Assembly: GCA_002030015.1 (NCBI GenBank)
Contig: LQBH01000013.1
Coordinates: 145,218 to 209,217 of the forward strand
DNA: 64,000 bases
Direction of reading: 5' to 3'
Origin: a delta proteobacterium MLS_D
Lineage (GTDB): Bacteria > Desulfobacterota > Syntrophia > Syntrophales > UBA2210
This document shows, in pieces, positions 18,210-44,761 of the stretch. Each line of letters starts with the position of its first letter. Positions within the stretch are counted from its first letter, which is position 1. The notes beneath the pieces were generated by a model. It made no database searches, had not been told where the DNA came from, and saw only the letters and a program-made list of their open reading frames with translations. A program made the translations under genes and the position numbers.

Positions 18210-18551
18210 TCTCCTTCCTTTATTTCGGATTTCCAGATTACTTTGCCGGACCTTGTCCATTCTCGAAAAAACGGTGATGACACATGTAGGATTCTAGCCG
18301 CCTTTATGCGGGTTTTGCAAACACATATACACGGGAACAATTAATAATAACATCATTCGTCCTCGCGTGTACACGGCACGAACCCTGTCATGTTCCGTTA
18401 TTCTAGGAGGGGCCTGAATCCGGTTTTTACGATGAAACATCGATTTCTTGACATAACTGCTTAGAAATATTAGCGTAAACAAACTATGCCGTTATTCTGT
18501 TATAGGATGAAAATTCAGGTTCCTGCTGTTTTTAGTTGAAAAGGAGCATTT

Positions 18552-18887
18552 ATGAAAAGAAAGGGAAGTTACAGTCACAATTATGATCCTGATAGACTTC
18601 GTGAATTAATTCAGGACGGAAAAAGCGCCAGAGAGATTATGAGGGAGCTGAAAATCTCCAAGTACAGCCTCCAGGAACAGTTGCTCATGCTGCAGGTTGA
18701 GGACAAGAAGCTGTACATCATCAAGGACCTGCTGGATTTTAAGACAGAAGAGGAAAAGAAATGGACGAAGTACAAGAAAGACGGAGTAATATTTTCGGAA
18801 AGGATGCTGGAATTCACCGGGTTTAAACCGGGTGATGCGTTTGAAATGGTAGTCGAGGAAGGCCGAATAATTCTCAAAAAGATATAA
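18552..18887 (+). CDS. Small putative DNA-binding protein (N-terminal HTH-like, C-terminal AbrB/SpoVT-like)
   Basis: SAREIMRELKISKYSLQE is HTH-like. GFKPGDAFEMVVEEGRIILKKI resembles an AbrB/MazE swapped-hairpin C-terminus. An AAAGGAG RBS is present. Confidence 0.4.
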   Translation: MKRKGSYSHNYDPDRLRELIQDGKSAREIMRELKISKYSLQEQLLMLQVEDKKLYIIKDLLDFKTEEEKKWTKYKKDGVIFSERMLEFTGFKPGDAFEMVVEEGRIILKKI

Positions 18888-18918
18888 TGCCATAAACTGA
18901 AAATCAGCTGCAGAAGGG

Positions 18919-20490: not shown

Positions 20491-20543
20491 GTGAAAAGGA
20501 TCCCGACGAAGCCTCATCGGGATCCCGCTGGTAATCTGAGGCG

Positions 20544-21479
20544 ATGACAGAGGTCTGGATCATGGTCAAATGGCACTACCTGTTTACTGTGGTATTCCTG
20601 GTATCGGCGCTTTTTGTGAACGGAGCTTCAACAGCGTACGGCCAGGAGGAAAAACCGACGGTCCGCCTTGCATACGTTGAATGGTCGTCGGAAATAGCCA
20701 GCACAAACCTGGTAAAGGTGATTATTGAAGAAGAGTTGGGATATCCCTGTGAGATAACAGCCATGACCACGGACAATATGTGGCGGGCGGTCGCCGAGGG
20801 CGAAGTCGACGCGATGGTCGCGGCATGGCTTCCCGGTACACACGCTCATTTCTATGAACAGTACGGCGAATGCGTGGACGACCTTGGTCCCAATCTCGAA
20901 GGTACGCGTACCGGCCTCGTGGTGCCGCAGGTGGCCCCGGGAAGGCAGACTGCTCGTTCCGGCCTTAAAAACGAACCGTATATCACGATCGATTCAATTC
21001 CCGAGATAAAGGAACATGTCGACAAATTCCGCGGCCGGATAATCGGGATTGATCCCGAGGCCGGCATTATGCGTCAGACAAGGGAAGCCATGAAGGTATA
21101 CGGGCTTGAGGACATGAAACTGGTATCGGGAAGCGAAATTTCGATGACCGCGGAGCTGGCAAGCGCCATAAGAAAACTGGACTGGATCGTTATCACCGGG
21201 TGGGTGCCCCACTGGAAATTCGCCCGCTACAGGTTGAAGTTTCTTGATGATCCGGAAAAAGTGTACGGCGGCGAGGAAACTATCCACACGATGGTTCGCG
21301 AAGGACTCAAAGAAGACATGCCTGAAATTTACGCGTTCCTCGACAATTTTTACTGGACACCGGAGGACATGGAGCAGCTTATGCTGTGGATCGAAGCCCG
21401 GAAGGGCGTATATCCCGAGGACAGCGCACACCGGTGGATGAGCTATCACCGGGACAGGGTTCGGGAATGGCTTCCCTGA
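20544..21479 (+). CDS. Glycine-betaine-binding protein (OpuAC/ProX-like substrate-binding domain)
   Basis: Signal peptide, then VRLAYVEWSSEIASTNLVKVIIEEELGY...DAMVAAWLPGTH, typical of OpuAC. The true start may be ATG 20562. Confidence 0.8.
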   Translation: MTEVWIMVKWHYLFTVVFLVSALFVNGASTAYGQEEKPTVRLAYVEWSSEIASTNLVKVIIEEELGYPCEITAMTTDNMWRAVAEGEVDAMVAAWLPGTHAHFYEQYGECVDDLGPNLEGTRTGLVVPQVAPGRQTARSGLKNEPYITIDSIPEIKEHVDKFRGRIIGIDPEAGIMRQTREAMKVYGLEDMKLVSGSEISMTAELASAIRKLDWIVITGWVPHWKFARYRLKFLDDPEKVYGGEETIHTMVREGLKEDMPEIYAFLDNFYWTPEDMEQLMLWIEARKGVYPEDSAHRWMSYHRDRVREWLP

Positions 21480-21602
21480 CGGGGGAAAAGGAAACTTTCT
21501 TCGGTTCATCGGGAATGCCATCCCTAACGAGAAAACAGAGCCAATCCCGATCGGCGATTGTCGTACCGGCAAATCGAGGGCGGCGGTTCCGTCCCCGTGT
21601 CA

Positions 21603-22292
21603 TTATTCTCCCGCGAGTATTCGGAGTGTTTCCGTGGGGGACTTTCCCAGCCTCGCGGCCAGGCTTCTCAGCCGGTCATCCGGTTTTGCCTCAATTCCCT
21701 GCGATTCAAGCCGTGGAATGACGTCTTCCCACGAAAGCCCCTGTTCCTCGACAACTTCCTCCAGGGTTTTTCTTCCCATTCCAGAACTGTGACCGTTTCC
21801 GGCCTGGCTGGATACGTCGCTTCCGGCAGGGTCCTTAAAAGCCTCGGACTTTGTGCTCGAGGAAGGCGTTGTTGAGCCGTCTTGTTCCCACCTGTCAGTG
21901 AAATATTTTCCAAGATCCATGACGGTGCTAAAGGGGGGAACATTCCACACGGAACCAAAGAACAGGACAAGACAAAGCACCGAAGCCGCCGCCAATTCAC
22001 GTTTTAGAGTCAGAACCTTTCGGGCCTTGTTCCAGACATAATGAGCGAAGATTTTCCAGTTGTAATACAAGTGAATGACCGCGATGAAAAAAAGAACAAA
22101 CCCGAAAATGGTATGTAACGCGATCCATTGGTCTTTTGTGAGTCCCCAGAGCTTCCACATGGTCCAGTCGGCGACCCTGTGCTGAGGAGCAATATAAAGA
22201 ATAACCCCGGAGATGAAGTCTATGACAAAGGAGATGGTGAGCACAAACGTCGTACATCCCCGCCAGTGAAATATTTTCTTGTTTTTCGTCAT
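21603..22292 (-). CDS. DUF4405-like membrane protein (cytochrome-b-like 4 TM)
   Basis: The start was trimmed from 22568 to ATG 22292 because the upstream part overlaps the thioesterase gene. TM pattern with conserved His residues (IALHTIFGFVLFFIAVIHLYYNWK). Confidence 0.5.
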   Translation of the reverse strand: MTKNKKIFHWRGCTTFVLTISFVIDFISGVILYIAPQHRVADWTMWKLWGLTKDQWIALHTIFGFVLFFIAVIHLYYNWKIFAHYVWNKARKVLTLKRELAAASVLCLVLFFGSVWNVPPFSTVMDLGKYFTDRWEQDGSTTPSSSTKSEAFKDPAGSDVSSQAGNGHSSGMGRKTLEEVVEEQGLSWEDVIPRLESQGIEAKPDDRLRSLAARLGKSPTETLRILAGE

Positions 22293-22306
22293 GGATCGGC
22301 TGTTTC

Positions 22307-22693
22307 TTATTTTGCCAGTATATGATTGGTCGTCACGTCCGCGATAAGCCTTTCCTCTTCTCCGTAAACGCAGGTCCGAACGGTGCTCACGGTTTTGCCC
22401 CGCTTCACGAATGACGAGATCGCCCTGAACACGCCTTCCGTCTGGTTGCTGATGAAATTGGCGTTCAGCGTAATGGCAAGAGGAAACCCCTTCTGGCCTG
22501 TTGTTGCCCGTTCCCCCGGCCGGAAAGAGCCGAAAACCAGTATTGTGGCCAGGATATCCGCGAACCACAGCATCGCCCCCACGTGAACAACGCCGTAAGG
22601 GTTCTTGATGCCGTCATGAATGGGCATTTCACCCACGACGCGGTCGGGGGTCTGCTCAACAACAGAAAATCTAATCGAACCTTCGTAATCCAT
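22307..22693 (-). CDS. PaaI/hotdog-fold thioesterase
   Basis: 128 aa. GVVHVGAMLWFADILAT and the overall hotdog pattern. Confidence 0.7.
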   Translation of the reverse strand: MDYEGSIRFSVVEQTPDRVVGEMPIHDGIKNPYGVVHVGAMLWFADILATILVFGSFRPGERATTGQKGFPLAITLNANFISNQTEGVFRAISSFVKRGKTVSTVRTCVYGEEERLIADVTTNHILAK

Positions 22694-22815
22694 GTGTTCT
22701 CCTTTTGCAGTTCCGAATCAGAGGAACGGTAGTATTAACGTTCCCGTGCCAAATAGGGGACACACGTCCCGTATTTTTGTTGGAAGAATAATTCAAAACA
22801 GAGAATATTTTTGTC

Positions 22816-23142
22816 ATGCAGAGAGTAATCGTGATTTCAGCGCCACAGTAACCGTACCCTGTCATCAAGCGAGGTAATAACCGCGTCGATGTGTTCTTTG
22901 ATGACAAGAATAAAGCACCATATCTCGTTTCCGAAAAAATGTCGAGATCGGTTTTCTGGAGGAAAACAGGGAACCCCAGAACACCGTTCCAGCGAGTCAT
23001 GGAATCGGAATCGACGCATGTGGAAGAATCGATCAAAAGGAAGCTCGCCAGGCAGCTTGAAGGACTCAATCCCTTCGTGCTAAGAAAAGCCATCGATACA
23101 CGGATTAGAAAAGTCTCTGCCGTCAACACCATACGTCGGTAA
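22816..23142 (+). pseudogene. Remnant of an IS200-like/REP-associated tyrosine transposase-like (COG1943) gene with in-frame stop
   Basis: MQRVIVISAPQ-TAA-PYPVIKRGNNRVDVFFDDKNK resembles the YHV(I/M)SRGN..(D/E)IF.DD.D N-terminal block of COG1943 proteins. The rest is divergent. The call is tentative. Confidence 0.3.
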
Positions 23143-23159
23143 CATTTATGTATGAAGCA
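23080..23159 (+). repeat. Left copy of ~80-bp direct repeat
   Basis: CTAAGAAAAGCCATCGATACACGGATTAGAAAAGTCTCTGCCGTCAACACCATACGTCGGTAACATTT...TATGAAGCA. The 68-nt core differs at 2 positions from the copy at 32551..32629. Confidence 0.85.
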
Positions 23160-23560
23160 AGGCGTCACCTTATGAATCTCTTTGTCGCCATACGGCTTCG
23201 AACCTGGCGGTTTGCCCTTGAATAGGGACAAACCTTACGACAGAAAACGGTTCTTTGTACAATAGATGTCAAGGTGTTTCCGCAGAGCATGAAAAAACTG
23301 ATCTATCCCGGAAATCGACCGACGGGGGGTGTTTTGATCCGGGTTCTGTGATCACTCCGGCCGTATAATAATTTTCAGGACATCAAATGGCTCATACTCC
23401 CGTGAACCAAGAATCAATCACGGATTGTTGGGGTCTGTCGCATAGAGAATTTTTTAATGGAAAACGACATAGTTTGTCTCCTTTCCCAAGTTTGCTGGGA
23501 CAGAGAAATTGATATTTTCAACCTCCCTCACAATCACATTTTACCCTGTGGCAATCCCGG

Positions 23561-25561
23561 TTATCCCCCGCCCGATTTCAATGCCCTCTGTGCCTCTTCT
23601 TTGCTTTCGTACATGCTTGATATTACTTGCTTCTCCTCAAGGGCTTCTCCGATTTTCATCCGAGCAAAGGCGTTTGTTGAGTAGCGTGTCGTGTTGATGT
23701 AACAATCCTTAACGAGTTTCTTAACCATTTCCGTGTACTCATCAATCAGGTGCGGCAGGATGTTGAAATTGTCATAATTGACGATGGTATAGACTTTTTT
23801 CCCGACGGGTCCGAGGATATTCCTCACCGCACGGTCTATTTCCTGAATTTGTTCGCTCAATTTAACATGGTATCCCTCGAAGTTGACGAAGAAAAGATTC
23901 TCCTCGGAGTTATAGGTCAGACGTTCCTCCAAGGGAATGCTGATGAGATCAGTCTCCAAGCCCATTGGTTCGGGACAGAAGATCCTCTCATCCATGAGAC
24001 GGAGATTTTTGATGACTGGTTTAAAGTCCATCAGGGCGAGGATGTCCTTCTCAAGGTCAATTCCGGGTGCGATCTCGATAAGCTCAAGCCCTTCACTGGT
24101 CAATGCAAAGACACAACGCTCGGTTACATACCGCACATATTGCCTCTGTTCCGCACTGTATTTCCCTCCGAATGTCATATGGTCGACTTGACTTACGAAC
24201 TTTTTCGCCTTTCCTTCTTGGTCGATTTGGAGCTGTTTGTCGTTCACGGAGACCTTCAGCCCAGCCGCTGTAAATGTACCAACGAATATACACTTCTTCG
24301 CGCACTGGCTGATATTGATAAATCCGCCGCACCCGGCGAGTTTCGGGCCGAACTTGCTGACATTGACATTTCCGTCCTTGTCTGTTTCGGCCATGCCGAG
24401 GCAGGTGATGTCCAGACCGCCGCCGTCATAGAAATCGAACTGATAGGGTTGGTCAATAAGGCAATCGGTGTTGGTGGCGGCGCCGAAGTTCAGCCCCCCG
24501 GCGGGCACCCCGCCGATAACGCCCGGTTCGGCGGTAAGGGTGAAATATTTCAGGATCTTTTCTTCGTTGGCGACATTCGCGACGCCTTCGGGAATGCCGA
24601 TTCCGAGATTAACGATATCATTAACTCTCAGCTCGAATGCCGCCCTTCTCGCGATGATTTTTCTCGCGTCCATTGCCAAGGGAGCCAACGAATCCAGAGG
24701 AACTTTTGTTTCGCCGCTGAAAGAGGGATTATAGACCTCAGCAAAGGTCTGCCAGTGGTTCTCGGGACGGGCGACAACGACGCAGTCAACCATGATTCCG
24801 GGCACCTTCACCTGTCTGGAATTCAAGGTTCCCTTCTCGGCGATCCGTTCAACCTGAGCGATGACAACACCGTTAGAATTCTTAACAGCGGTCGCAATGG
24901 AAAGATTCTCCAGGGTCAGCGCCTCCTTCTCCATAGTTATGTTGCCGTCCGTATCGGACGTCGTGCCCCGTATCAGTCCGACATTTATGGGCATGAGCTT
25001 ATAGGCAAGATACTGTATGCCATCAAATTCAACCAACTCCACAATATCATCTTCGGTTATATCATTAAACTTTCCGCCTCCATACCGTGGATCTACATAT
25101 GTTCCCATCCCAACGCTCGAGATGGTTCTGGGTTTATGGGCAGCGGTATCCCTGTACATGTGAGATATCACCCCCTGGGGCAGATTGTAGGCGATGATTT
25201 TGTTTTCGCTTGCCAGTTGCCCCAGCTTGGGTGCCAGTCCCCAGTGTCCCCCGATGACTCTTTTTACCAAGCCTTCGTGGGCAAAGTGGTTTAAACCCTT
25301 ATCTTTCCCGTCGCCCTGGCCGGCTGCATACATGAGGGTGAGGTCACGGGGATGACCGGTTCTTAGAAAAAAAGCTTCAACCGCAATGGCGATCTCCTCG
25401 GCAAAGCATGTTCCGACAAACCCGCCGAATGCAATTGTGTCTCCGTCTTGTATCAGTTGAACAGCCTCTTCCGAGGTGACCACTTTATTCCGAGCCCGCA
25501 TGACGCCCCGTAGGATGGGATGGCCGCTCTTCGTGTTTGAGGGGGTTCCGTTTAAAACCAT
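23561..25561 (-). CDS. Acyl-CoA:acetate/3-ketoacid CoA-transferase family protein (long form)
   Basis: 666 aa. The N-terminus (EEAVQLIQDGDTIAFGGFVG...GLNHFAHEGLVKRVIGGHWG) and overall layout are typical of COG4670/propionate CoA-transferase-like enzymes. An AAGGAGA RBS is present. Confidence 0.8.
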   Translation of the reverse strand: MVLNGTPSNTKSGHPILRGVMRARNKVVTSEEAVQLIQDGDTIAFGGFVGTCFAEEIAIAVEAFFLRTGHPRDLTLMYAAGQGDGKDKGLNHFAHEGLVKRVIGGHWGLAPKLGQLASENKIIAYNLPQGVISHMYRDTAAHKPRTISSVGMGTYVDPRYGGGKFNDITEDDIVELVEFDGIQYLAYKLMPINVGLIRGTTSDTDGNITMEKEALTLENLSIATAVKNSNGVVIAQVERIAEKGTLNSRQVKVPGIMVDCVVVARPENHWQTFAEVYNPSFSGETKVPLDSLAPLAMDARKIIARRAAFELRVNDIVNLGIGIPEGVANVANEEKILKYFTLTAEPGVIGGVPAGGLNFGAATNTDCLIDQPYQFDFYDGGGLDITCLGMAETDKDGNVNVSKFGPKLAGCGGFINISQCAKKCIFVGTFTAAGLKVSVNDKQLQIDQEGKAKKFVSQVDHMTFGGKYSAEQRQYVRYVTERCVFALTSEGLELIEIAPGIDLEKDILALMDFKPVIKNLRLMDERIFCPEPMGLETDLISIPLEERLTYNSEENLFFVNFEGYHVKLSEQIQEIDRAVRNILGPVGKKVYTIVNYDNFNILPHLIDEYTEMVKKLVKDCYINTTRYSTNAFARMKIGEALEEKQVISSMYESKEEAQRALKSGGG

Positions 25562-25600
25562 GGCATGTCTCCTTAAGAATAATTTTAGATGTATGAGTTT

Positions 25601-26017
25601 TTATTTCGGCGGACTGACCACGGCCTCGCCTTCCAATACCGTGATTCCGTCCTGATTGTAGCAGGTGGTTTTTAGCCGCACCTTGTTCTTGACGGCCGTG
25701 ATTTCTATAATTTCCGCCTTGGCGGTAATGGTATCGCCTATCCTGACCGGGGCCAGGAACTTGAGGCTCTGATCAAGGTAGATTGTTCCGGGGCCTGGCA
25801 GTTTCATCGCTATAACCGTTGAAATAAAACCCGCCGACAGCATGCCGTGGGCGATACGTGTCTTGAAAAAGGTGCTTTTCGCATACTCTTCGTTGGTGTG
25901 CGCCGGGTTAAAATCGCCGCTTACGCCGGCATAGAGATAAATATCCGCCTCGGAAATCGTTTTAGCAAAATCCGCCTGATCACCGACCTCTAGTTCTTCT
26001 ATGGTCTTTCCGTGCAT
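25601..26017 (-). CDS. MaoC-like (R)-specific enoyl-CoA hydratase / dehydratase
   Basis: 138 aa. The hydratase-2 motif is YAGVSGDFNPAHT. Hotdog fold. Confidence 0.85.
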   Translation of the reverse strand: MHGKTIEELEVGDQADFAKTISEADIYLYAGVSGDFNPAHTNEEYAKSTFFKTRIAHGMLSAGFISTVIAMKLPGPGTIYLDQSLKFLAPVRIGDTITAKAEIIEITAVKNKVRLKTTCYNQDGITVLEGEAVVSPPK

Positions 26018-26082
26018 ATTCTGTTCACCTCGCTAAGATTAGGGTAAGTTGCAATTCTAAAATGATAATATGATCTGAATAT

Positions 26083-26098
26083 CTCAAGAAACATGCCA
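26083..26098 (-). promoter_or_regulatory. Candidate sigma54-like promoter with atypical -12 (TTGA) upstream of MaoC/CoA-transferase
   Basis: The minus strand reads TGGCATGTTTCTTGAG, with a perfect -24 TGGCA and correct spacing. The -12 is TTGA instead of TTGC. It lies about 66 nt upstream of the 26017 start. Confidence 0.3.
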
Positions 26099-26233
26099 GG
26101 ACGGAAAGCGGAGGAGAGATAAAAGTTCAAGGTTAGGAAATATCAAGCAGGCTCTCTGTTCGGTCGGCGAAAAGCCACTTGGAGAGTTGCCGGAAAGGGG
26201 GGTGTTGAGATAACCGGGAGTGTATCAGCAAGG

Positions 26234-27682
26234 CTACACTGTAGATACCCCGCTGCCGTCGTGAAGGGGGATATTATGTTTTTTCATCTTCTTGTACAAT
26301 AAGGTACGATGAATACCCAAAATCTTTGAGGCTTGTTGCTTGTTGTACTTCGCACTAGTAAGTGCGTGGAGAAGCGCCTCTCTTTCGGCTTCTTCATGTA
26401 CATTTTTCAGGGAGATCTTGTCTGTATCAAGAGATATAAGGTGCTGTCTTTTTTTACTGGGTGGCAGGGTCCGCCTCAAATAAAAGGGGAGATCTTCGGG
26501 GTAAATGGTATGGCCCTCCAGAGCCGAAAGCGTCCTTTCAAGTACATTCTGAAGCTCCCTCGTGTTCCCCGGCCAGTTGCTCTTCTTCAATAATTCCTCG
26601 GCCTCGGGTGTGATTGATATTTCGGATATATCGACATTTTCTGTAAGATTCTTCAGTAAATGCCTGGCAAGGGGGATGATATCATCTCTCCGTTCGCGCA
26701 GGGGAGGGATGTGGAGCGATATAACGTTCAAACGATAAAAAAGGTCAAGTCGAAACCTCTTTTCCGGAACCATCTCTTCGAGGTTCTGATTGGTGGCAGC
26801 GATAAGGCGGAAGTCGGAATGAACCGCCGCCGTTCCTCCCAACCGAGTAAATTCCTTGTCCTCGAGGACCCTCAAAAGCTTCGGTTGCATGTCAAGGGAC
26901 ATGTCGCCGATCTCGTCCAGGAATATGGTGCCGTTATCAGCCAGTTCAAACTTTCCTTTCTTGCCGCTGCTACTGGCCCCGGTGAAGGCTCCTTTTTCAT
27001 ATCCGAACAGTTCCGATTCGATCAATTCCTTCGGAATAGCTGAACAGTTGAGGCGAACAAAGGGATACACCTTCCGGGAACTGGCACTGTGGATTGCATG
27101 GGCGAAAAGTTCTTTGCCGGTGCCGCTTTCACCCGTTATCAGTACGGTGAAAGAGTTGGCCGCCGCCTTTATGGCTTCTTGTTTCAGGGAGAGCATGGAC
27201 TCGCTCACCCCGACAATGTTGTCAAATGTAAAGCGCCTTGATCGAAGGCTGAGGAGTTCTCTTTCATACTCTTTCACCTTTGTCTCCAGAGTGGAAAGTT
27301 TCTTGGCGAGTTTTGTTAAATCTTTGGTATTCTTGAACATCACTTGGCCGTACACGGCGGTCACTTTGTCGCCCTCCTTTATGGGAATGCGCTGGACCAC
27401 CATATTCTGCCCCTTGATCAAATGAGAATGGTTAATTTCGGGGATCCCCGTTTTTGCCACAATGTGCATTCTGGAGTTCTCAACAACTTCAGTGCAATGC
27501 TTGCCGATTTGCTTCTCCGGGTCTACATTGAGAAACTTGCCGTAGGGCTTATTAAAGTGGGTCACGTAACCATCCGCGTCTGTAACGACAGCGCCATTGT
27601 ATATGCTGTCGAAGACCAGCGGATCGATTCTAAGCTGATTCGTTATCTTCTTTAAAGACTTACGTTCCTTTGACGGAATAAT
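26234..27682 (-). CDS. Sigma54-dependent transcriptional activator (PAS + AAA+ + HTH), activator B; probable non-ATG start
   Basis: Walker A GESGTGKELFAHAIH, GAFTGA, IFLDEIGD, WPGNTRELQN, and the HTH QASKILGIHRTLLYKKM. The ORF-track GTG (27565) would cut the PAS domain. The frame stays open to 27700 and encodes ...LRIDPLVFDSIYNGAVVTDADGYV. An AAGGAGG RBS (27691-27697) lies 8 nt before ATT 27682. Confidence 0.8.
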   Translation of the reverse strand: MIPSKERKSLKKITNQLRIDPLVFDSIYNGAVVTDADGYVTHFNKPYGKFLNVDPEKQIGKHCTEVVENSRMHIVAKTGIPEINHSHLIKGQNMVVQRIPIKEGDKVTAVYGQVMFKNTKDLTKLAKKLSTLETKVKEYERELLSLRSRRFTFDNIVGVSESMLSLKQEAIKAAANSFTVLITGESGTGKELFAHAIHSASSRKVYPFVRLNCSAIPKELIESELFGYEKGAFTGASSSGKKGKFELADNGTIFLDEIGDMSLDMQPKLLRVLEDKEFTRLGGTAAVHSDFRLIAATNQNLEEMVPEKRFRLDLFYRLNVISLHIPPLRERRDDIIPLARHLLKNLTENVDISEISITPEAEELLKKSNWPGNTRELQNVLERTLSALEGHTIYPEDLPFYLRRTLPPSKKRQHLISLDTDKISLKNVHEEAEREALLHALTSAKYNKQQASKILGIHRTLLYKKMKKHNIPLHDGSGVSTV

Positions 27683-27847
27683 CGGGGTTGCCTCCTTTAT
27701 CTATCTATAAAGTGTACCAAAAAAACTACATGTTACCATTCTAATACTTATTCGCTCTTCTGTTTGTCAACTATTTTTTTCACGTTAGTCGAGATATCCC
27801 GCGTCAAATCACGAATACAATGGAACCTTTCCGGCGGGACGGCACGC

Positions 27848-27863
27848 TGGTCTGAAACTTGCA
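27848..27863 (+). promoter_or_regulatory. Candidate sigma54 (-24/-12) promoter of operon B
   Basis: TGGTCTGAAACTTGCA has GG-N10-GC spacing and a TTGCA -12. It lies about 100 nt upstream of ATG 27962 and is divergent from activator B. Confidence 0.55.
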
Positions 27864-27961
27864 TCACTGGGAACTACTGAAAAGGTTGTGAAGCGCTTTG
27901 TGGAAGGTACCCTTCGCACAGGCGATATTGTGAGTTAACAATTACCGAAAGGAGAAGTATT

Positions 27962-29029
27962 ATGAAGAGACGAAATTTCTTGAAGGGCATGGCCGCAACG
28001 GGCGCTGGTGTGGCCCTGTCCGGTGGTGTCGGAACTCTGTCAAAGGCCCAAGCACGGAAGCAGGAGGACTTCGGTGTAATTAAGAGCCTGAAAGTACACG
28101 TTATTTCGGAGACGAGTTGGTTTGACAATCCCACCCTTGGCAAGGACATCAAGGCGGCCGGCGGAATCAACACCAACCAGTACGACGTTGTCTATACCGA
28201 GGAAAACCTCGGCGGCTATGCCGCTCTGGTTGAAGTGGAAGCACTCGACGGCAAGAAAACCAAGTATCTCCTCGATACGGGCTGGAGCAACGACTGGATG
28301 GATTACTGTTTTGAAAAAGACGGTATCGACAAGATGCTTCAGAACAGAGAGATCGATACCATGATCATTTCTCATGATCACATCGACCACTACTTCGGCC
28401 TGGAGAGTACGCTGAAACATCAGGACGATATCAAGATTTACTTCCCGCCTACGGCGATGAAGAAAAGCTTCGAACTGCTCAAGGGTGCCGACTTCTCGGC
28501 CACGCCGGGCTGTCCGAAGAACAGCATTCCACACAAGGGTGAACTTATTGTGACGGAAACCGATAAGCTGTACAAACTTCAGGACGGCGCGGCGCTCGTT
28601 TTCTTCGATGCACCGGCAACGCTCCAGGTGCGCGGTGAGAACGTCATGTACTTCAATATCAAGGACAAAGGATATGTCACCGTTACCGGTTGCTGCCATC
28701 CCGGCATCATGACGCTTATTAATTATGCGCGGAGGAATTTCAAGGACGGTAGCAATAATTACGGTTGCTACGGCGGTCTGCACATTTCTCCCTTTGAAAA
28801 CTGGGATCCCAAGATGGATGACATCCTCAAAGGTGTGAAGGCCATGAACATGACCAAGGTCGCCTGCAACCACTGCACCGGCTGGATCTGGGCGGAGAAA
28901 GCGGACAAGATGGGCATTCCCATAGTTCACGGCACGAACAAAAACCTGTCCTACAAGAAGACGGGTACTCTGGCTAAGGCAAATACATCCAACGTTTATC
29001 TCGGAAATGGGGATGAGGTCATTTTCTAA
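27962..29029 (+). CDS. Tat-signal metallo-beta-lactamase-fold protein (COG1237-like), copy B
   Basis: Canonical Tat signal MKRRNFLKGMAATGAGVALSGG...AQA. MBL motif ISHDHIDHYFG. VTGCCH, YGGLHISPFENWDPK and CNHCTG. An AAAGGAGAAG RBS is present. Confidence 0.85.
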   Translation: MKRRNFLKGMAATGAGVALSGGVGTLSKAQARKQEDFGVIKSLKVHVISETSWFDNPTLGKDIKAAGGINTNQYDVVYTEENLGGYAALVEVEALDGKKTKYLLDTGWSNDWMDYCFEKDGIDKMLQNREIDTMIISHDHIDHYFGLESTLKHQDDIKIYFPPTAMKKSFELLKGADFSATPGCPKNSIPHKGELIVTETDKLYKLQDGAALVFFDAPATLQVRGENVMYFNIKDKGYVTVTGCCHPGIMTLINYARRNFKDGSNNYGCYGGLHISPFENWDPKMDDILKGVKAMNMTKVACNHCTGWIWAEKADKMGIPIVHGTNKNLSYKKTGTLAKANTSNVYLGNGDEVIF

Positions 29030-29162
29030 AGAAGGATAATACGATTCTCCGTTCACCGTGAGGATGAAGGGGTCGACTACTCCAGGAGAGTAGGGTACTT
29101 GGGGTTTGACCCCTTCTTTACGGAGGTGTGACTCATTTTAAACCGAATTAGGGGGTTCTTTC

Positions 29163-30407
29163 ATGAGCAACAATCAATCGCTTGAGAACTGGCTTACAAC
29201 GAGACAGTTGGAGCCTCGATGGTCTGTCGGTCTGTCAGGGGTTGCAAACCTGATCGTCCTTCTCATCGGCGTCTTTGCCGTATGGTGGATCTTTTTCTCC
29301 AATGGCGGGATATTCAAACTGTATACGCCTCTCCTGGGCTTCTCGCTGGTCATATGGACGCTGCTCATACTGCTCTGGCAGACGGAACTGTTTGACTACT
29401 GGCCGTTCTCACGCTCCTACCTGCAGAATACCCATCCGCTCGCCAAGGGCGCGACGATGTCACTCCTCATGCTTGTCATCTACCTCGTCCTTATCATCGG
29501 GTGTGTCTACCTGATCATGGGCAAACTCGGCATCACCTATTTCAACTGGAACAGTCTCATGACCTATGGAGATTTCGGCCAGGACGCCACATCCACACGG
29601 GAAGCCGCGTCATGGGCGATGCTGTGCCTCTCTGTTCCGTTCTTCCTCGTGAGTGTCTGGTTCATGTTCGGGATCGGAAAGGATCTCTTTCCTGAATTGA
29701 AACAGCCAAAGTTCGGGATCGCCATGTGGTCGATTATCGCGGTCCTGGGTATCTACTTCTATTTCATTTTCTTCCATCCCCACATTGGATCCATGTTCTA
29801 TCCGAAACAGATCTATGCCGCGGTGCCTCCCTGGTGGGAAAGCATAGCGCAGACCAACAGCGCCGAATACAGTCTTGGCATCCTGTTCGTCACCGTCGTC
29901 GGCATTTTCTATGCTTTCCATCTCTGGGACGGCTGGCCATATAACTACGTTCAGAAACAGCCGTGGCGCTTTATTTATTTCGCCGTTGTCAGTCTTGTCA
30001 TCGGCTATATTATCTTCCGCGTTCAGTTGTTCATTTTCGACTATATCTGGTATGAAGCCTATGTCGGCGGTCAGAATGAAGCCAACTTCGGTTGGCGGTA
30101 TAGCCATACCGTCACGATGGCGAATTTTGTCCTTGTCATCGCTCTGATTCAAAACGTCTTCTTCGGACAGGCATACGAAAAGATGAACGCTGTCGTGCGA
30201 GGCCTTATCAAGACCATCGTCGCTGTTGTCGTTGGCCTGCTTTTCGCGTGGGCCTACTATGCCTGGGGACCGGCGCTTCTCGGGATATGTGGGGGTATTT
30301 CCCATCCGTCGGAGAATGCCGCCGCCTTCCTGATTATGGTTATTAACCTGATCATGATTCAGGATTACTTTATGGATCGATGGCCCGGGTATCGGCTCAA
30401 AAAATAA
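29163..30407 (+). CDS. Polytopic membrane protein (~10 TM), Trp/Tyr-rich, unknown family, copy B
   Basis: 414 aa. It is a paralog of 13778..15190 (see the shared blocks listed there). Confidence 0.8.
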   Translation: MSNNQSLENWLTTRQLEPRWSVGLSGVANLIVLLIGVFAVWWIFFSNGGIFKLYTPLLGFSLVIWTLLILLWQTELFDYWPFSRSYLQNTHPLAKGATMSLLMLVIYLVLIIGCVYLIMGKLGITYFNWNSLMTYGDFGQDATSTREAASWAMLCLSVPFFLVSVWFMFGIGKDLFPELKQPKFGIAMWSIIAVLGIYFYFIFFHPHIGSMFYPKQIYAAVPPWWESIAQTNSAEYSLGILFVTVVGIFYAFHLWDGWPYNYVQKQPWRFIYFAVVSLVIGYIIFRVQLFIFDYIWYEAYVGGQNEANFGWRYSHTVTMANFVLVIALIQNVFFGQAYEKMNAVVRGLIKTIVAVVVGLLFAWAYYAWGPALLGICGGISHPSENAAAFLIMVINLIMIQDYFMDRWPGYRLKK

Positions 30408-30430
30408 CCGTTCTGAAGGGATAGATAAAC

Positions 30431-31414
30431 ATGACCGTGACCAGGCATATTGATCCTCTTGTTTCTTTCGAGATGCTTCTGCTCGAGCTGTTTCAAGGGG
30501 TATTTCAGAACGATGCGGCGCGGCGGCAATTCGGTTTTTCCCAGATATCGCAGGTGACAACCTCTGACGGTCTGCTTTCATGGTATTTGTGGTTTTCTGA
30601 AAAGCCCGGCGCCTACTCTCTTACTGTTACCGAGGGGCAGGTGGTGTCTGAGTCAGACAATGTGTCCGGTAACCAGCAAGATACGGATATCTTGGAGGGC
30701 CGTCTTGCTATACGGTATTTCCCTGATATGGAAGATGAGATGTTTGATTCCCTTTCCTGTTATGAGCAGATATTTCGGATGGGACCTTCCTTCGATGCTA
30801 ATGGTACGCCCTCTTTTGAAGGGGGGCGTACCATGCATGACGGTTTTTTTGTCGCCGGGTATATGAATATTCTCATCCATTCTTCGAAAGCCGATGTGGA
30901 TTTTTTCTGCTCTGCACCGGACAGATGGCGGGATTACCGCCTCGACGGCCTCACATTGACCAATGATAAGGGAGAGTCCCGCCGGGTCCTCTCTCCCGGT
31001 GCCGTTGACCGGGACTTCCCCGGCTGGGATATCTCGTTCTTTATCTTAGATAAAATTATTTCATCGTTCTGTTTTGTGTTCGGTCAGGCGCCCCGGTGCG
31101 TGGGAGCCGCCTCCAGGCCGTTTGTTCACTACGAGATCGATTCGAAACAAACGGTCCGTACTGTGAAGGACCCGGATATAACCGAGTGCGCCTTTGGCGT
31201 CTCATTTTCCAACCACGCTGGAGAAAATCTTTTGAAAAAAAGATATGGCTCTTTTGCTGAACGGTTTGATTCACCGGATTACTCCGTGATCGGCATGTGG
31301 AAAGATCCTGACGGTATCCCCGCGCGGTGGAAGAGGCCGGAGTGGTGGACGATCAGGACCACACATTTTCATGCCGACCCCGATTACGTCTGCTCCTGCT
31401 ACGCGGACGTCTAA
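30431..31414 (+). CDS. Unknown-domain protein, free-standing paralog of the N-terminal half of the COG0523 fusion
   Basis: 327 aa. LSPGAVDRDFPGWD versus LSPGEVDRDFPAFD, and RLAIRYFPDMEDEMFDSL versus RFGLCYFPNEQESLVERF. I recognise no known motif. Confidence 0.7.
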   Translation: MTVTRHIDPLVSFEMLLLELFQGVFQNDAARRQFGFSQISQVTTSDGLLSWYLWFSEKPGAYSLTVTEGQVVSESDNVSGNQQDTDILEGRLAIRYFPDMEDEMFDSLSCYEQIFRMGPSFDANGTPSFEGGRTMHDGFFVAGYMNILIHSSKADVDFFCSAPDRWRDYRLDGLTLTNDKGESRRVLSPGAVDRDFPGWDISFFILDKIISSFCFVFGQAPRCVGAASRPFVHYEIDSKQTVRTVKDPDITECAFGVSFSNHAGENLLKKRYGSFAERFDSPDYSVIGMWKDPDGIPARWKRPEWWTIRTTHFHADPDYVCSCYADV

Positions 31415-31432
31415 GGAAAGGATTGAACTGGT

Positions 31433-31696
31433 ATGATTGACAAGTCACGTCGCAGTTTTTTTAATGAATTCTTTGTGAAAAACGCGATCAAATGTGTTTC
31501 CGAAGCCCATAAAGCCTACGAGGACACCAAAAATGATCTCGACTACTTCAATTCCTTTGAGTCGGCCTATCCCCTTATATCTGAGAGCTACTCTTTTCTC
31601 GAAGATGAAGTGATACGCCTTGGGATCGACACCGAGGGGATGACAAAACTCGAAATCGTTAGGGAGATTTACGAACGAAACAAAAATGTTCCTTAA
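31433..31696 (+). CDS. Small protein with RRxFF N-terminus, copy B
   Basis: MIDKSRRSFFNEFF... is 87 aa. The pattern is shared with 15222..15491 and the gene is tightly spaced after 31414. Confidence 0.55.
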   Translation: MIDKSRRSFFNEFFVKNAIKCVSEAHKAYEDTKNDLDYFNSFESAYPLISESYSFLEDEVIRLGIDTEGMTKLEIVREIYERNKNVP

Positions 31697-31792
31697 CCAA
31701 AGTTTTATCCCACGGTGGACACAAAAATAGTGATATCGGGTGATTAGTGCTAGAGTGTCAAATTTATGGTCACTACATCTTTACATTTCAAC

Positions 31793-32259
31793 CTACGTAG
31801 GTTTCAGTGGAGCACTGGTAATTCCAAGCGCACTATACACATCCGCCTGTTTCGGTGTCAGGATACCGCAATACCGTAGATGAACTATTGTACCGTCGGC
31901 CGTGGGAAGATGTGTGCTAAGAGCAACGTGTGTCTTCAGTAGTGAATGAACCGTATTCCAACGATGACTGAGATACCGGCTGTTGGTCACGTCAAGTAAG
32001 GTTCGCAATTTCCAGTAACGAGTCCATCGACACCTTCCGTTTACGCTGCCTTTCCTAGTGCCGCCCGAAGGCAGCAGACTTGAATGTCGCGCAGGCTCTC
32101 TCGGTACGGGAGCTGGGCGAAGGCCATGCAGAGGTACTGATCCCAGCAGGAGAAACTGATCACCTTGTGGTTGCCGTCGTAGCGATCGACGCATTTCCGA
32201 AACTCGTAGGGGGTGACAAAATCCATTAACTGGGGAAAAATCGTTTTCCCGGTATTCAT
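31793..32259 (-). mobile_element. Internally deleted / frameshifted IS4-family (DUF4372-type) transposase remnant
   Basis: MNTGKTIFPQLMDFVTPYEFRKCVDRYDGNHKVISFSCWDQYLCMAFAQLPYRESLRDI matches the DUF4372 N-terminus of IS4-family transposases. It breaks off after about 70 aa. A different frame carries a YLSHRWNTVHSLLK block like the Y..RW.IE..FK.LK C-terminal motif. The total of about 470 nt is far too short for an intact gene. Confidence 0.7.
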
Positions 32260-32550
32260 GCGCTGCCTCCACTATCGTCGATGGCGGAGACTGGCATATC
32301 GGGGAAACTATTTTCAAATCGATAAATGACATTTTTCGCTCAATCTAGTTATATTTCAGTCATTTGAAACAGGTGAAAAGTTCAACCTTGGGACAGAAGT
32401 GTATTAATAACAGTATTAATAGCATATTATCGGTCACTGTTCGGCCCCCCCCAAAGAACTGCATGTAATATTATCAATGGGTTACACGTGACCAATCACT
32501 TAAAATAGCCGTATTTTGTTGCTTTTTGTGAAAATGTGGTTAAAGTTGGG

Positions 32551-32629
32551 CTAGGAAAAGCCATCGACACACGGATTAGAAAAGTCTCTGCCGTCAACAC
32601 CATACGTCGGTAACATTTTTTATGAAGCA
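32551..32629 (+). repeat. Right copy of ~80-bp direct repeat (plus partial third copy of its tail at 32653..32671)
   Basis: CTAGGAAAAGCCATCGACACACGGATTAGAAAAGTCTCTGCCGTCAACACCATACGTCGGTAACATTT..TATGAAGCA. The tail CGGTAACATTTATGAAGCA is repeated 24 nt further on. Confidence 0.85.
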
Positions 32630-32870
32630 CCGTTACCGCTTCCACGCTCTTTCGGTAACATTTATGAAGCAACTGGGCAGTTCTTCTATCCTGATTCTAC
32701 ACATGCCCTGATTTTCGGGGCCGGTTCCAACACAGCGTGAAAGACGACGTCTCTAACGTGGTTTCGTCTCGGGAGTGGTTACGACGCGCGACGGGACCGG
32801 ATGGGGGAATACAGGCGGATGTTGGAACTTCGTAGAAATTTCGCAGCACCTGCAGGGAGACAGAATAAGA

Positions 32871-33530
32871 ATGGCCGACAAAATTTATCCCGATTCCGGC
32901 GTTGAGTTGACGACCACTCTCGCAAAGCATTACGACAGGGTTTTGAACATCGGGTCGCTGGGTCTGTACGCTGGTTTCATACGAAAAGCCATACAAGAAA
33001 TGCGCATCAATCCCGAAGATCACATCCTGGACCTGGGGTGCGGGACGGGAAGAAACGCCCGTCTCATGACGCAATTTCTTAACGAGCGGGGAAAGGTTAC
33101 CGGGCTGGACATTTCCGACCACATGGGAAAACATTTTTTACGCACGTTTCAAAACGACAGGCGGGCGGAGTTTATTCGCACGCGTATCGATCAGCGGTTC
33201 GATCTGGGAATTTCCGTCGACAAGGTATTTATCAGTTTCGTCATCCACGGGTTCCCGCACGATGTCCGCGACATCATCATTCAGAACGCGTATCGCCATC
33301 TCAAGCCGGGCGGAACATTTCACATACTTGACTATGCCGAATTCAACCTGGACACGATACCGGTTCACCACCGTCTGATCTTCAAAACCTTTGAATGTAA
33401 GTACGCCTTTGATTTCGTGAGCAGAGACTGGAAAAAAATTTTACGGGGACACGGGTTCGAAGAATTCACCGAGTGGTTTCACTTCAGGGGATATGTCAGG
33501 TTGCTCAGCGCAAGGAAATCCCGAGAGTAA
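32871..33530 (+). CDS. Class I SAM-dependent methyltransferase
   Basis: Motif I ILDLGCGTGRNA. Post-I/II blocks are also present. The start was trimmed to ATG 32871. Confidence 0.75.
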   Translation: MADKIYPDSGVELTTTLAKHYDRVLNIGSLGLYAGFIRKAIQEMRINPEDHILDLGCGTGRNARLMTQFLNERGKVTGLDISDHMGKHFLRTFQNDRRAEFIRTRIDQRFDLGISVDKVFISFVIHGFPHDVRDIIIQNAYRHLKPGGTFHILDYAEFNLDTIPVHHRLIFKTFECKYAFDFVSRDWKKILRGHGFEEFTEWFHFRGYVRLLSARKSRE

Positions 33531-33823
33531 CGCTTTCCCCCTCCGGGAGGGGGTGGTTCAGACGGTCATCGGCTGCCTCCGGAATTTCATCCCTCCGCTC
33601 AGATCGGCTGTTGAAGCTGCTGCATGTTGTTTCAACAGGTGGACCGGCAATCACCCACCAGGCGCGTGGTCCGGCTGAAGACTGGTAAACAGGACCATTG
33701 CGGTGTACAATCAAAAATAACGTTAAAAGGGCACACTAAGGCAACAGGCATCGTGCCGCTGCACGGGTGCGGACTGACGTCCGTTTCTGCGTCTCCGGCT
33801 TTCATAAAAAAGTTGGGTCGCGT

Positions 33824-35950
33824 ATGAATATTTATTCTCTCCCGGCGATCATCTCTTTTACGGTCAATTTCAGCACCGCTTTCATCGTCCTGATGGAAAA
33901 TCCGCGGGCAACCTTGCACCGGTGGTTTGCGGCTTTCATCTTCAGTTTCGCCGTCTGGAACCTGGCCGAAATTCTCATGTTAAACAGCGCCGACCTGTTA
34001 CCAGCCATGCTGGGTGCGCAGATTCTTTACAGGGTTATTTTTCTCACTCCGGCATTCTACGTGATTATTTCCTATCTCTTCCCCAAGAACTTGGGCACGT
34101 TTGCGACGAGGCCCATCTTTTATGTGGCCGTTTTCTCGCTGCCGGTTCTGGGCCTGTGCCTGTCTTTTCCTGACTTTCAGATAGAACTGGTTTCCCTGAA
34201 AGAGGCACTCAATATTTACCATTATCATCTTACGTTCAACCTCAATCCTGTTTTCTTATTTCTCCTGCTTGTTTCACTGAGTTACATCGTGTGGGGAAGC
34301 GTTGTTCTTGTTATGAAGATCAAGCACTTGCGCACTATCCGTCTCAAAAACCAGACCCGTTTTTTCGTGTCGGGGATGGTATTCATCTTTGTCGGGTTTA
34401 TAGCGATCATTCTGCTGAAGGCCAGCCTGCGGAATCCGGCGTCCTTTTATTGGCTTTCAACCATTTTCACTTTTATTGTCGCTCTTTTTTTCCTCATAAC
34501 CATCATGAAGTTTCACCTGTTCAAGCCCGGGAAGATGCTCAGCGGGGGAATGACCTATACCATTCTTTCCGCCGCGACCCTCAGCGTCTACTTTTTTGTT
34601 GTCAGGGCCGCCAGTACCGGCCTGGAGTCGTGGATCGGAATTGACTCGTACATGCTCAACGCCGCCCTGATTGTTGCCTTGATCTTCGCCATTGTGCCGT
34701 TCGAAAAGCGTCTCAGGAGATTATTCGATCGGCTGCTCAACAGGGATTTACATCAGCAGCGTGGTAATATCCTCGCCTTGTTTCGTGAGTTACAGGGATA
34801 TCACGAAAGGTCGGCGTTCTTCGAGATTATCGAACGGTTTTTGGTCGATAATCTGAAGAGTTCGGCGGTTTTTATCTTTGATTATCGTCCGGAAGTTAAT
34901 CAATTTGTTGAAAGCCACGCTGACGGTACGATACCGCCTGTCCCGGAAAGCTCTTCTCTCGTGAGAGAACTAAAAAGGAAGAAGGGCGTAGCAGAGTTCT
35001 ATGAAATCACCCATACAGAAGAGAGTCATGAATATCACAAATTTCTGGAAGATGTGCACGCGAGATTTCTTGTGCCCCTCACGTACGCAGGCAACCTTAT
35101 GGCCATCGTGGTCCTGTGCCGCAAGAAGTACGGTCTCGAATATAATGAAAACGAAAAGGAAATCTTGTCTATCCTGGGTAGTGAAGTAGCAGCCTCGCTG
35201 CGCAGGAACCAGATGATCGAAGAAATGCGCGTGAAGGATCGGCAGCGGTTCCAGGTGGAAAAACTCGCCTCTGTCGGTCAGCTCGCCGCCAGCCTCGCCC
35301 ACGAAATCCGTAATCCACTTAACACCATTTCCACGTCGGCGCAGACACTGCTGCAAAAAAGTATTACCGAAATCGACAGGAAAAACCTCATGCGGTTTAT
35401 CATTGAAGAGGCAGGCCGCCTGAACCGTATACTGGAAGATTTTCTGAGCCTTGCACGAATCGGGATGGGGACCCTTGTCCCCATAGACATGGAGGGCATG
35501 TTCGACAGGCTCTGCCTTGAACTGAAGAATCTGGACGATCTGGATATACCTGTCTCGTACGAAATTACGACACGCCACGGGGGACTTGTCAGCGATCCCG
35601 ATTTGCTGTTCCAGGCGCTCCTGAATCTGGGAATTAACGCGCGAGCCGCGATACGGGAACGCTGCAGCAATGACGAGGACTTTACCTGCACGGATGGAAT
35701 GATTCAGTGCGTGGTGAGCGCGGATACGCATCATTTTATAGTTTCAGTTACCGACAACGGTATCGGAATTTCTCCTGATGCCAGGAAATTATTATATGAT
35801 CCATTTTTTACGACAAGGGAGAAAGGTACCGGGCTGGGGTTGTCCATTGTTCACCAGATTGTCGCGGTCCTGTCCGGGAGTATCGAGTTCGCGTCGCGGC
35901 CCGGTCATACACGTTTCTCCATTTTACTGCCCAGGAAAACAGCGGAATAA
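33824..35950 (+). CDS. Sensor histidine kinase with N-terminal 7-TM domain
   Basis: About 7 TM at the N-terminus, a central GAF-like region, the HisKA H-box (LAASLAHEIRNPLN), and HATPase N/G boxes (NLGINARAA, DNGIGI, GTGLGLSIV). The start was trimmed to ATG 33824. Confidence 0.85.
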   Translation: MNIYSLPAIISFTVNFSTAFIVLMENPRATLHRWFAAFIFSFAVWNLAEILMLNSADLLPAMLGAQILYRVIFLTPAFYVIISYLFPKNLGTFATRPIFYVAVFSLPVLGLCLSFPDFQIELVSLKEALNIYHYHLTFNLNPVFLFLLLVSLSYIVWGSVVLVMKIKHLRTIRLKNQTRFFVSGMVFIFVGFIAIILLKASLRNPASFYWLSTIFTFIVALFFLITIMKFHLFKPGKMLSGGMTYTILSAATLSVYFFVVRAASTGLESWIGIDSYMLNAALIVALIFAIVPFEKRLRRLFDRLLNRDLHQQRGNILALFRELQGYHERSAFFEIIERFLVDNLKSSAVFIFDYRPEVNQFVESHADGTIPPVPESSSLVRELKRKKGVAEFYEITHTEESHEYHKFLEDVHARFLVPLTYAGNLMAIVVLCRKKYGLEYNENEKEILSILGSEVAASLRRNQMIEEMRVKDRQRFQVEKLASVGQLAASLAHEIRNPLNTISTSAQTLLQKSITEIDRKNLMRFIIEEAGRLNRILEDFLSLARIGMGTLVPIDMEGMFDRLCLELKNLDDLDIPVSYEITTRHGGLVSDPDLLFQALLNLGINARAAIRERCSNDEDFTCTDGMIQCVVSADTHHFIVSVTDNGIGISPDARKLLYDPFFTTREKGTGLGLSIVHQIVAVLSGSIEFASRPGHTRFSILLPRKTAE

Positions 35951-44575: not shown

Positions 44576-44651
44576 TGGTGAGCTGCCGGGGACTCGAACC
44601 CCGAACCTACTGATTAAGAGTCAGTTGCTCTACCAGCTGAGCTAGCAGCCC
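44576..44651 (-). tRNA. tRNA-Lys (anticodon CTT), CCA encoded
   Basis: The reverse complement is GGGCTGCTAGCTCAGCTGGTAGAGCAACTGACTCTTAATCAGTAGGTTCGGGGTTCGAGTCCCCGGCAGCTCACCA. It folds into a cloverleaf by hand, with the anticodon loop CTCTTAA. Confidence 0.93.
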
Positions 44652-44684
44652 TTTTATATGTAAGACGTGTAACGGTCTTTTTTC

Positions 44685-44761
44685 TGGTACGCCCGGTAGG
44701 ATTCGAACCTACGACCAACAGATTCGAAGTCTGCGACTCTATCCAGCTGAGCTACGGGCGC
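44685..44761 (-). tRNA. tRNA-Arg (anticodon TCG), CCA encoded
   Basis: The reverse complement is GCGCCCGTAGCTCAGCTGGATAGAGTCGCAGACTTCGAATCTGTTGGTCGTAGGTTCGAATCCTACCGGGCGTACCA. The cloverleaf is checked by hand, with the anticodon loop CTTCGAA. Confidence 0.93.

Follow-up and report, generated by a model that had tools for sequence, protein, structure and literature searches.

Direct repeats around a gene module in the delta proteobacterium MLS_D as probable fossil ends of an insertion sequence

Composite transposons of the Tn9/Tn10 type carry two direct copies of the same insertion sequence (IS) on either side of exchanged metabolic or regulatory cargo, and in genomic islands of the attL/attR type, which integrate at tRNA genes or at the 3′ ends of genes, foreign-looking DNA is bounded by direct repeats. 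Here we describe a locus that shares features with both. In a 64,000-nucleotide stretch of the delta proteobacterium MLS_D genome (contig C13, positions 145218-209217; “the window”), two ~80-bp direct repeats bracket a segment with seven genes, among them those for a coenzyme A (CoA)-transferase, a MaoC-like dehydratase, a sigma54-dependent activator and a metallo-β-lactamase (MBL)-fold protein. The repeats are probably the fossil right ends of two copies of a DDE-type IS, to which we give the working name “IS-X,” in nested IS debris around an acquired module.

As in Tn9/Tn10-type transposons, two direct copies of one IS (here fossils, 9.47 kb apart) flank exchanged metabolic and regulatory cargo. 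The locus differs from these transposons in that it has neither an intact transposase nor an outer left end, offers no testable target duplication, holds cargo that occurs elsewhere without the IS, and lies in a compositional island that exceeds the bracketed unit. Like attL/attR islands, it has direct repeats that edge foreign-looking DNA, and a tRNA-Lys/tRNA-Arg pair edges the larger tract around it. However, no integrase was detected among the open reading frames (ORFs) scanned, and the repeats appear to be IS ends that lie inside the variable tract rather than at its edges. IS-X itself resembles DDE-type IS distantly related to IS481 in its single ~390-amino-acid (aa) DDE transposase and terminal inverted repeats, and in being a multicopy element that breaks the assemblies of related genomes and has a 7-bp flanking duplication in one copy. 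It differs from IS481-type elements in having two ~24-bp repeats per end instead of a single inverted repeat, in having no Pfam hit, and in scoring below the family cut-off. The window retains nothing of IS-X other than two right ends, ~120 and ~190 bp long.

The direct repeats and the insertion sequence behind them

The genome that holds the window (G000) is a 2.51-Mb metagenome-assembled genome (MAG) of 70 contigs that is 96% complete. A repeat search of the window aligned positions 23079-23147 with 32550-32618 over 69 nt at 97% identity and in the same orientation, with a spacing of 9471 bp from start to start. Past this core a small indel sets the two copies apart before they agree once more over ATGAAGCA; the left ~80-bp copy occupies 23079-23159 on the plus strand. 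An earlier note on this DNA had described near-identical repeats in the same orientation at both sites, with a tail that recurs at 32653-32671, and both observations hold; the recurring tail is CGGTAACATTTATGAAGCA. A search of the whole 2.51-Mb genome found no copies beyond these two, and the pair is therefore far beyond chance. The right copy begins with 6 nt (GCTAGG, 32550-32555) that form the end of an IS1634-family element, so the identity derived from IS-X amounts to 63 nt with 1 mismatch.

G000 is a MAG and short-read assemblies break at repeats, and the 80-mer might have produced a chimeric join in the contig that makes the bracketing unreal. This is extremely improbable, because the same arrangement spans both repeats in three independent Joint Genome Institute (JGI) metagenome assemblies (Ga0643563_0000156, MLSed_10000120 and Ga0643562_0000188; contigs of 54-70 kb), whose sequences agree with the window over 13-20 kb (positions 12307-32693 or 19403-32693) but for 0-1 mismatch. 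Moreover, the two copies are told apart by private substitutions and different tails, with the IS-X end meeting the cargo at one junction (GAAGCAAGGCGTCACCTTATGAATC) and the right flank at the other (ATGAAGCAACTGGGCAGTTCTTC). One Logan contig has one of its ends exactly 30 nt short of the end of the shared 69-mer, at the point where an assembly graph with k=31 would split because of a two-copy repeat. Alternative contexts were sought by exact-protein look-up, and only identical assemblies or contigs broken at the repeat were returned. The repeat structure is genuine and not an assembly artefact.

In G018, a nearly closed genome from the family, the sequence homologous to the repeat closes a 392-aa ORF at its 3′ end; this ORF belongs to an IS with eight copies, three intact and five partial. 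The earlier note had called for a search of the genome for the intact owner of the 80-bp tail; a translated search of G000 found no intact IS-X and no IS-X transposase beyond two C-terminal stubs. The element is about 1.35 kb long and encodes a transposase of ~386-392 aa, in which a D..D..E spacing was judged by eye for the G018 protein. The NCBIfam model for IS481 (NF033577) scored 29 bits (E 7e-7) against a cut-off of 224 that was not reached, which indicates only distant similarity to IS481. No Pfam domain, rve included, matched the transposase, a PDB sequence search returned no result, and a cluster look-up gave no name for the element. Full-length homologues with 36-39% identity were identified on 169 plasmid records, and those listed are annotated as DDE-type integrase/transposase/recombinase or “transposase family protein,” or are unannotated. 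Despite these plasmid homologues, the IS-X family appears to be uncatalogued in domain libraries. The data document a DDE transposase family that is widespread, goes unrecognised by Pfam and has two repeats at each element end.

The structure of the ends was deduced from intact copies (in G018 and on contig L126) and from copies at contig ends in G002, which belongs to the same genus as G000. Each end carries a ~24-bp motif (CGGTAACAT..ATGARGCAA) twice, with the inner repeat beside the gene and the outer, terminal one ~45 nt further out, and both are present at both ends of intact copies. We take these double repeats to be putative transposase-binding sites. One of the G018 copies is flanked by a 7-bp duplication, TTCGATC. 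In G002 and in G004, another genome of the same genus, homology between copies stops at ...ATGAAGCAATAGG and the DNA beyond is unique. These copies terminate at CGGTAACATTTATTTATGAAGCAATAGG, followed by unique flanks, and the same repeat is found in the window at 23137-~23163 and 32653-~32677.

Both window copies carry the transposase 3′ end together with a terminal repeat. The left fossil (~22972-~23163, plus strand) was delimited by tblastn against G018, by the G002 ends and by a motif scan. In detail, window positions 22960-23130 match residues 335-389 of the 392-aa G018 transposase (E 3.7e-12), with a second alignment to residues 339-388. The fossil retains the last ~52 transposase codons and one outer-type terminal repeat fused directly behind the stop codon, and it is without the ~45-nt spacer between inner and outer repeats and without the 5′ ~1.15 kb of IS-X. 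The right fossil (32556-~32677, plus strand) was delimited by end comparison and a motif scan, and is 88-90% identical to complete right ends at G002 and G004 contig starts. It consists of the last ~19 transposase codons, the inner repeat (32608-32629), the spacer and the outer repeat (32653-~32677), and the right copy of the direct repeat matches the last ~27 aa of the IS-X transposase. IS-X ends normally carry the repeat twice, and this explains the tail that the earlier note had seen once more to the right.

A genome motif scan located the terminal-repeat motif at three sites in G000, all in plus orientation, and the left-end motif of IS-X at none in the assembled contigs. The transposase 3′ end and terminal repeat of both copies mark the same (right) end twice and not the two ends of one element. 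From comparisons of this kind, the repeats are what remains of two copies of one IS, in each case a 5′-truncated right end. The proposal that they are two ends of a decayed mobile element is correct as to a mobile-element origin and wrong as to the ends.

Copies of the element are dispersed among related genomes. Contig ends carry the 80-mer in G002 (C102, C94, C57 and C4; at least four copies) and G004 (C208), and further contig-end matches to the IS-X right end were found in G024 (11 matches) and G009. In G027, only the ~25-nt terminal repeat recurs, in at least 10 copies or contigs and about 100 nt inside contig ends. Such placement is typical of elements that are present in many copies and interrupt short-read assemblies. 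The window fossils are 90-93% identical to the G002 and G004 copies and about 71% identical to those of G018. Three substitutions relative to the G002 and G004 copies are common to both fossils, from which we infer that they are sister copies. A near-intact (frameshifted) relative of IS-X was also found on metagenome contigs L092 (5830-7130), L120 and L126 (8606-9915). Its protein shares 70% aa identity with the G018 transposase, and its left end is about 90 bp upstream of an MBL start codon.

Debris of other elements at the two fossils

The left fossil ends a 96-codon ORF (22852-23142) that is chimeric, with an N-terminal COG1943-like stub and the IS-X C-terminus; Pfam gave no match on it. 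The stub is part of a degenerate 5′ remnant of a COG1943/RAYT-like (Y1 transposase-like) pseudogene on the plus strand (22757-22956), identified by alignment to G005:C168 and G004:C29, and comprises the upstream region and about 50 codons with an in-frame stop. The pseudogene frames in G004 and G005 read MPRTARII..GANNRADVFFDDEDRATYL..YCPMTHHVHIL (tblastn E 3.8e-7). The Y1 transposase model PF01797 gave no score on the stub (C13:168069) or on the ORF, though it found other loci in G000. In a split-target test, no continuation of the COG1943-like gene was detected after either fossil. A COG1943 origin of the repeated 3′ end was ruled out, as PF01797 is silent and the DDE transposase matches instead. 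Thus, the earlier description of the left ORF as COG1943-like fits its N-terminal stub, but the 80-bp tail that had been assigned to that gene matches the C-terminus of a DDE transposase.

At the right fossil, the remains of two further elements are nested. The ends of an IS1634-family element (“IS-Y”) were identified on the minus strand. Its 3′ end, with the last ~55 transposase codons, occupies 31692-31954 (79% identity to G016:C131) and lies directly against the stop codon of the last gene of the module (87 aa), and its 5′ terminal ~100 nt occupy 32452-32555 (about 80% identity to copies at G046 contig ends and to G016:C131). The terminus (...GTTGGGCTAGG) is at 32555, and copies diverge right after ..GGGCTA[A/G]G. 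An intact relative in G016:C131 is 2.08 kb long and encodes a 617-aa transposase that scores 253 bits on NF033559 (cut-off 100), and many G046 and G048 contigs start or stop within IS-Y ends. The window copy retains both ends and the transposase C-terminus and has lost about 1.2 kb of its interior. No target duplication was seen around it, which is consistent with loss of the IS-X body by recombination or an adjacent deletion.

Nested in IS-Y is the 5′ fragment of a DUF4372-type IS4-family element on the minus strand (31983-32410), which encodes the frameshifted N-terminal ~95 codons (PF14294, E 2.7e-24) and is 90-91% identical to G002:C57 and G001:C144; the element is multicopy across the family. 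The IS4-family remnant reported just inside the right repeat is thereby confirmed, with the addition that it sits within an internally deleted IS1634-family element. The window matches the ends of the 2.08-kb IS1634-family element and encodes a DUF4372 N-terminus, and in this it is like both kinds of element. It differs from live IS4-type elements in that both are dead here, IS-Y being without its interior and flanking duplication and the DUF4372 element being a 0.43-kb fragment. A 67-nt multicopy piece at 31983-32062 was also considered as a small RNA or a miniature inverted-repeat transposable element; it has no fold signal and looks like the conserved stretch ..VS.STLA.ANE.RDW.. of the DUF4372-type transposase. 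No credible known RNA family was found in 20-36 kb of the window.

Acquisition of the module and the origin of the bracketing

Several lines of evidence bear on the history of the enclosed genes, which include the 414-aa protein p414. The B-type p414, that of the enclosed segment, is present in 6 of 38 family genomes. This protein of the window shares 92-93% identity with p414 in two genomes of another genus, versus 70% with that of the congeneric G003, and two core proteins show the opposite order, with 60-81% identity to G003 and 55-67% to the genomes of loci L049, L050 and L080. In the p414 tree, the window falls in a supported seven-member clade with L049, L050, L091, L047, L089 and L092, and G003 falls in a different supported clade; p414 of L092, L120 and L126 is in the same clade as that of the window. 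The segment has a G+C content of 49.0%, versus 55.2% for the genome, which places it in the lowest 0.9% of 9.4-kb genome windows, and its tetranucleotide distance is in the top 1.5%. The patchy presence of the module, the conflict between the p414 tree and genome relatedness, and the atypical composition make its horizontal acquisition by this lineage well supported. The G+C profile for which the earlier note had called bears out its impression by eye of a lower G+C, when the segment is compared to the genome; the segment is barely below its own flanks (50.6-50.9%). In L049, L050 and L113, the G+C of the module equals that of its surroundings.

Taking these results together, we propose that a variable, low-G+C tract tolerant of IS once held two full-length IS-X copies at a distance of 9.5 kb. 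Later IS insertions and IS-mediated deletion or recombination would have whittled both copies to their right ends, with the left one fused to the COG1943-like pseudogene stub and the right one cut exactly at the terminus of the internally deleted IS1634-family element that holds the IS4/DUF4372 fragment. The seven-gene module would have arrived by horizontal transfer, probably within the larger variable tract. The repeats would thus be scars and not recombination sites, no longer able to transpose. Their sole plausible activity now would be to serve as 63-69-nt substrates for homologous recombination that deletes or amplifies the 9.47-kb block. We regard this history, with fossil right ends of two IS-X copies in nested IS debris around an acquired module, as probable.

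Some observations sit uneasily with it. In 2.5 Mb there are no more than two IS-X fossils, and these share one orientation, are separated by 9.5 kb and sit immediately outside an exchanged module. Random independent insertions would rarely give such bracketing, so retention in an IS-tolerant tract or local hopping is needed, and the two fossils are sister copies by the three substitutions that set them apart from G002 and G004. MAG bins often lose multicopy IS bodies, and G002, G004 and G027 show IS-X ends only, with the body absent. Finally, no empty site was recovered from G004 or G005, the contigs of which break near the junctions.

A rival reading is that the repeats are what is left of a composite transposon, in which two direct IS-X copies captured the CoA-transferase, MaoC, activator and MBL genes, delivered them as a unit and then decayed. 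The fossils are from the same IS, in direct orientation, and with three derived substitutions in common; the only IS-X traces in the genome bracket a syntenic and horizontally exchanged module; and the IS-X relative ~90 bp upstream of the MBL gene in L092, L120 and L126 suggests that IS-X and this module lineage meet repeatedly. If this were so, an uncatalogued double-repeat DDE IS would have mobilised a complete sigma54-controlled module between anaerobic Desulfobacterota genera, and the patchy and incongruent distribution of the module would be explained. However, we consider this origin unlikely. G000 has no IS-X left end or transposase and thus no target duplication that can be checked, and the COG1943-like stub is not continued after either fossil. 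An IS-X-module-IS-X unit was not found elsewhere: L049, L050, L080, L113 and many other loci have no flanking IS-X ends, nor were IS-X ends found near the closest relatives of the module (L049, L050 and L091; G055 and G022), and the single IS-X of L092 and L126 is inside the module region and does not flank it. Moreover, the fossils resemble the copies of the in-genus G002 and G004 (90-93% identity) much more closely than those of G018 (~71%), the genus of which holds the closest module relatives, and the low-G+C tract reaches well beyond both repeats.

The earlier note had also compared the repeats to an attL/attR-type duplication, in which a site-specific recombinase integrates the 9.4-kb segment at the 3′ end of a gene and duplicates that end. 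The direct repeats do include the 3′ end of an ORF, but the duplicated end belongs to an IS transposase and the repeat runs on into IS terminal repeats, and the same sequence is dispersed and multicopy in relatives. Pfam scans of the main ORFs at 18.9-37.4 kb and of eight further ORFs (at 7.1-8.6, 17.8-18.3 and 37.5-44.2 kb) detected no recombinase of the tyrosine or serine type, either within the segment or next to it. A tRNA search found tRNA genes only at 44576-44761. With no recombinase among these ORFs, and with repeats made of a transposase 3′ end and an IS terminus, an att site was ruled out, and we give integration of this kind hardly any weight.

The preferred reading, fossil right ends of two IS-X copies, also changes what can be said of a mobile cassette. 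The cargo does appear to be horizontally acquired, as had been suggested, but the data do not show the repeats to be the limits of the transferred unit: the module is also found in other genomes at native G+C and without the repeats, and the 80-mer is dispersed and multicopy in sister genomes, both of which count in part against the cassette as first described. In place of an apparent att or cassette signal there is now a resolved map of two IS-X fossils, an IS1634-family element, an IS4/DUF4372 fragment and a COG1943-like stub. To a mobile-element specialist, nested IS debris of this ordinary kind in a flexible part of the genome would be no surprise. The relationships described above are independent evidence that the MBL module, which is uncharacterised, moves with its activator, CoA-transferase and MaoC genes as one exchanged unit, and such joint exchange supports treating the seven genes as a functional set.

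Genes of the module and the wider variable tract

The module opens with three genes on the minus strand: an intact CoA-transferase of 666 aa (23561-25561; PF01144, FadX-like by NCBIfam), the MaoC-like dehydratase (25601-26017; PF01575) and the sigma54-dependent activator (26234-27565; PF00158 and PF02954). The four genes of “operon B” follow on the plus strand (27962-31696), beginning with the MBL-fold gene, which has a Tat signal (27962-29029), and continuing with genes of unknown kind for proteins of 414 aa (p414), 327 aa (p327) and 87 aa (p87). Operon B is syntenic in >60 loci. Its paralogue in the window, operon A, shares 39% identity with it in the MBL protein and 28% in p414, values that point to an ancient paralogy.

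The order CoA-transferase-MaoC-activator | MBL-p414-p327-p87 is kept in L049, L050, L080 and L113. The two closest relatives of the module, L049 (4300-9900) and L050 (4420-9900), have a ~5.3-kb insert between the activator and the MBL gene, which in L050 holds four ORFs of 371, 169, 443 and 454 aa. In the congeneric locus L034 (G001:C190), the orthologous activator (62% aa identity) is divergently adjacent to the CoA-transferase (71% aa identity), and a MaoC gene was not detected between them at E<=1e-6. Given this adjacency in G001, the activator may control the CoA-transferase genes besides, or in place of, the MBL operon.

The 64-kb window extends well beyond this segment. The low-G+C tract covers about 16 to 40 kb, well past both repeats, and is shared only patchily by G004 and G005, which are relatives at ~90% average nucleotide identity (ANI). 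Synteny with these two genomes is lost from about 8.8-12 kb and is back at about 44.5 kb. The tRNA-Lys(CTT) and tRNA-Arg(TCG) genes (44576-44761, minus strand) sit exactly where genus-wide synteny resumes (about 44536), at the edge of the variable tract. The contigs of G005 end at 12011 and 38866. The left flank of the segment (18490-22728) is shared by G004 at 85% identity and the right flank (32871-34845) at 99%, on two short contigs (C147 and C216) whose far ends neither overlap nor match G000. Both contigs then continue with DNA that G000 does not have: 419 bp at one flank, and an ArsR gene plus a permease-HMA gene at the other. With flank blocks at 85% and 99% identity that continue into such DNA, adjacent blocks of the tract thus have different histories.

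The right-flank block (32871-34845, plus strand) encodes a methyltransferase and the 5′ half of a histidine kinase, and is 99.3% identical to G004:C216, versus 85-92% in the other synteny blocks between G000 and G004 (baseline about 90%). The identity begins about 9 nt into the methyltransferase gene; upstream of this point, the ArsR gene and the HMA-domain permease of C216 replace the IS debris of the window. This pattern suggests a very recent interspecies exchange or a mis-binned G004 contig.

Two smaller features lie at the CoA-transferase end of the module. A 133-nt intergenic stretch downstream of the CoA-transferase gene (23301-23432) shares 84% identity with the start of G004:C95 (133 nt), which continues into DNA 96.7% identical to G000:C68:38517-45697, and G000:C68 itself differs at that point; the stretch is possibly a small mobile or recombinogenic element. 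The C-terminal ~130 aa of the CoA-transferase (23561-23960) form an extra domain without a Pfam family, which is not in the 539-aa orthologues of L049, L050 and L113 and apparently not in that of L080. A homologue of this domain with 50% identity is part of a more distant CoA-transferase of L092 and L126, and the gene in the window looks like a domain mosaic.

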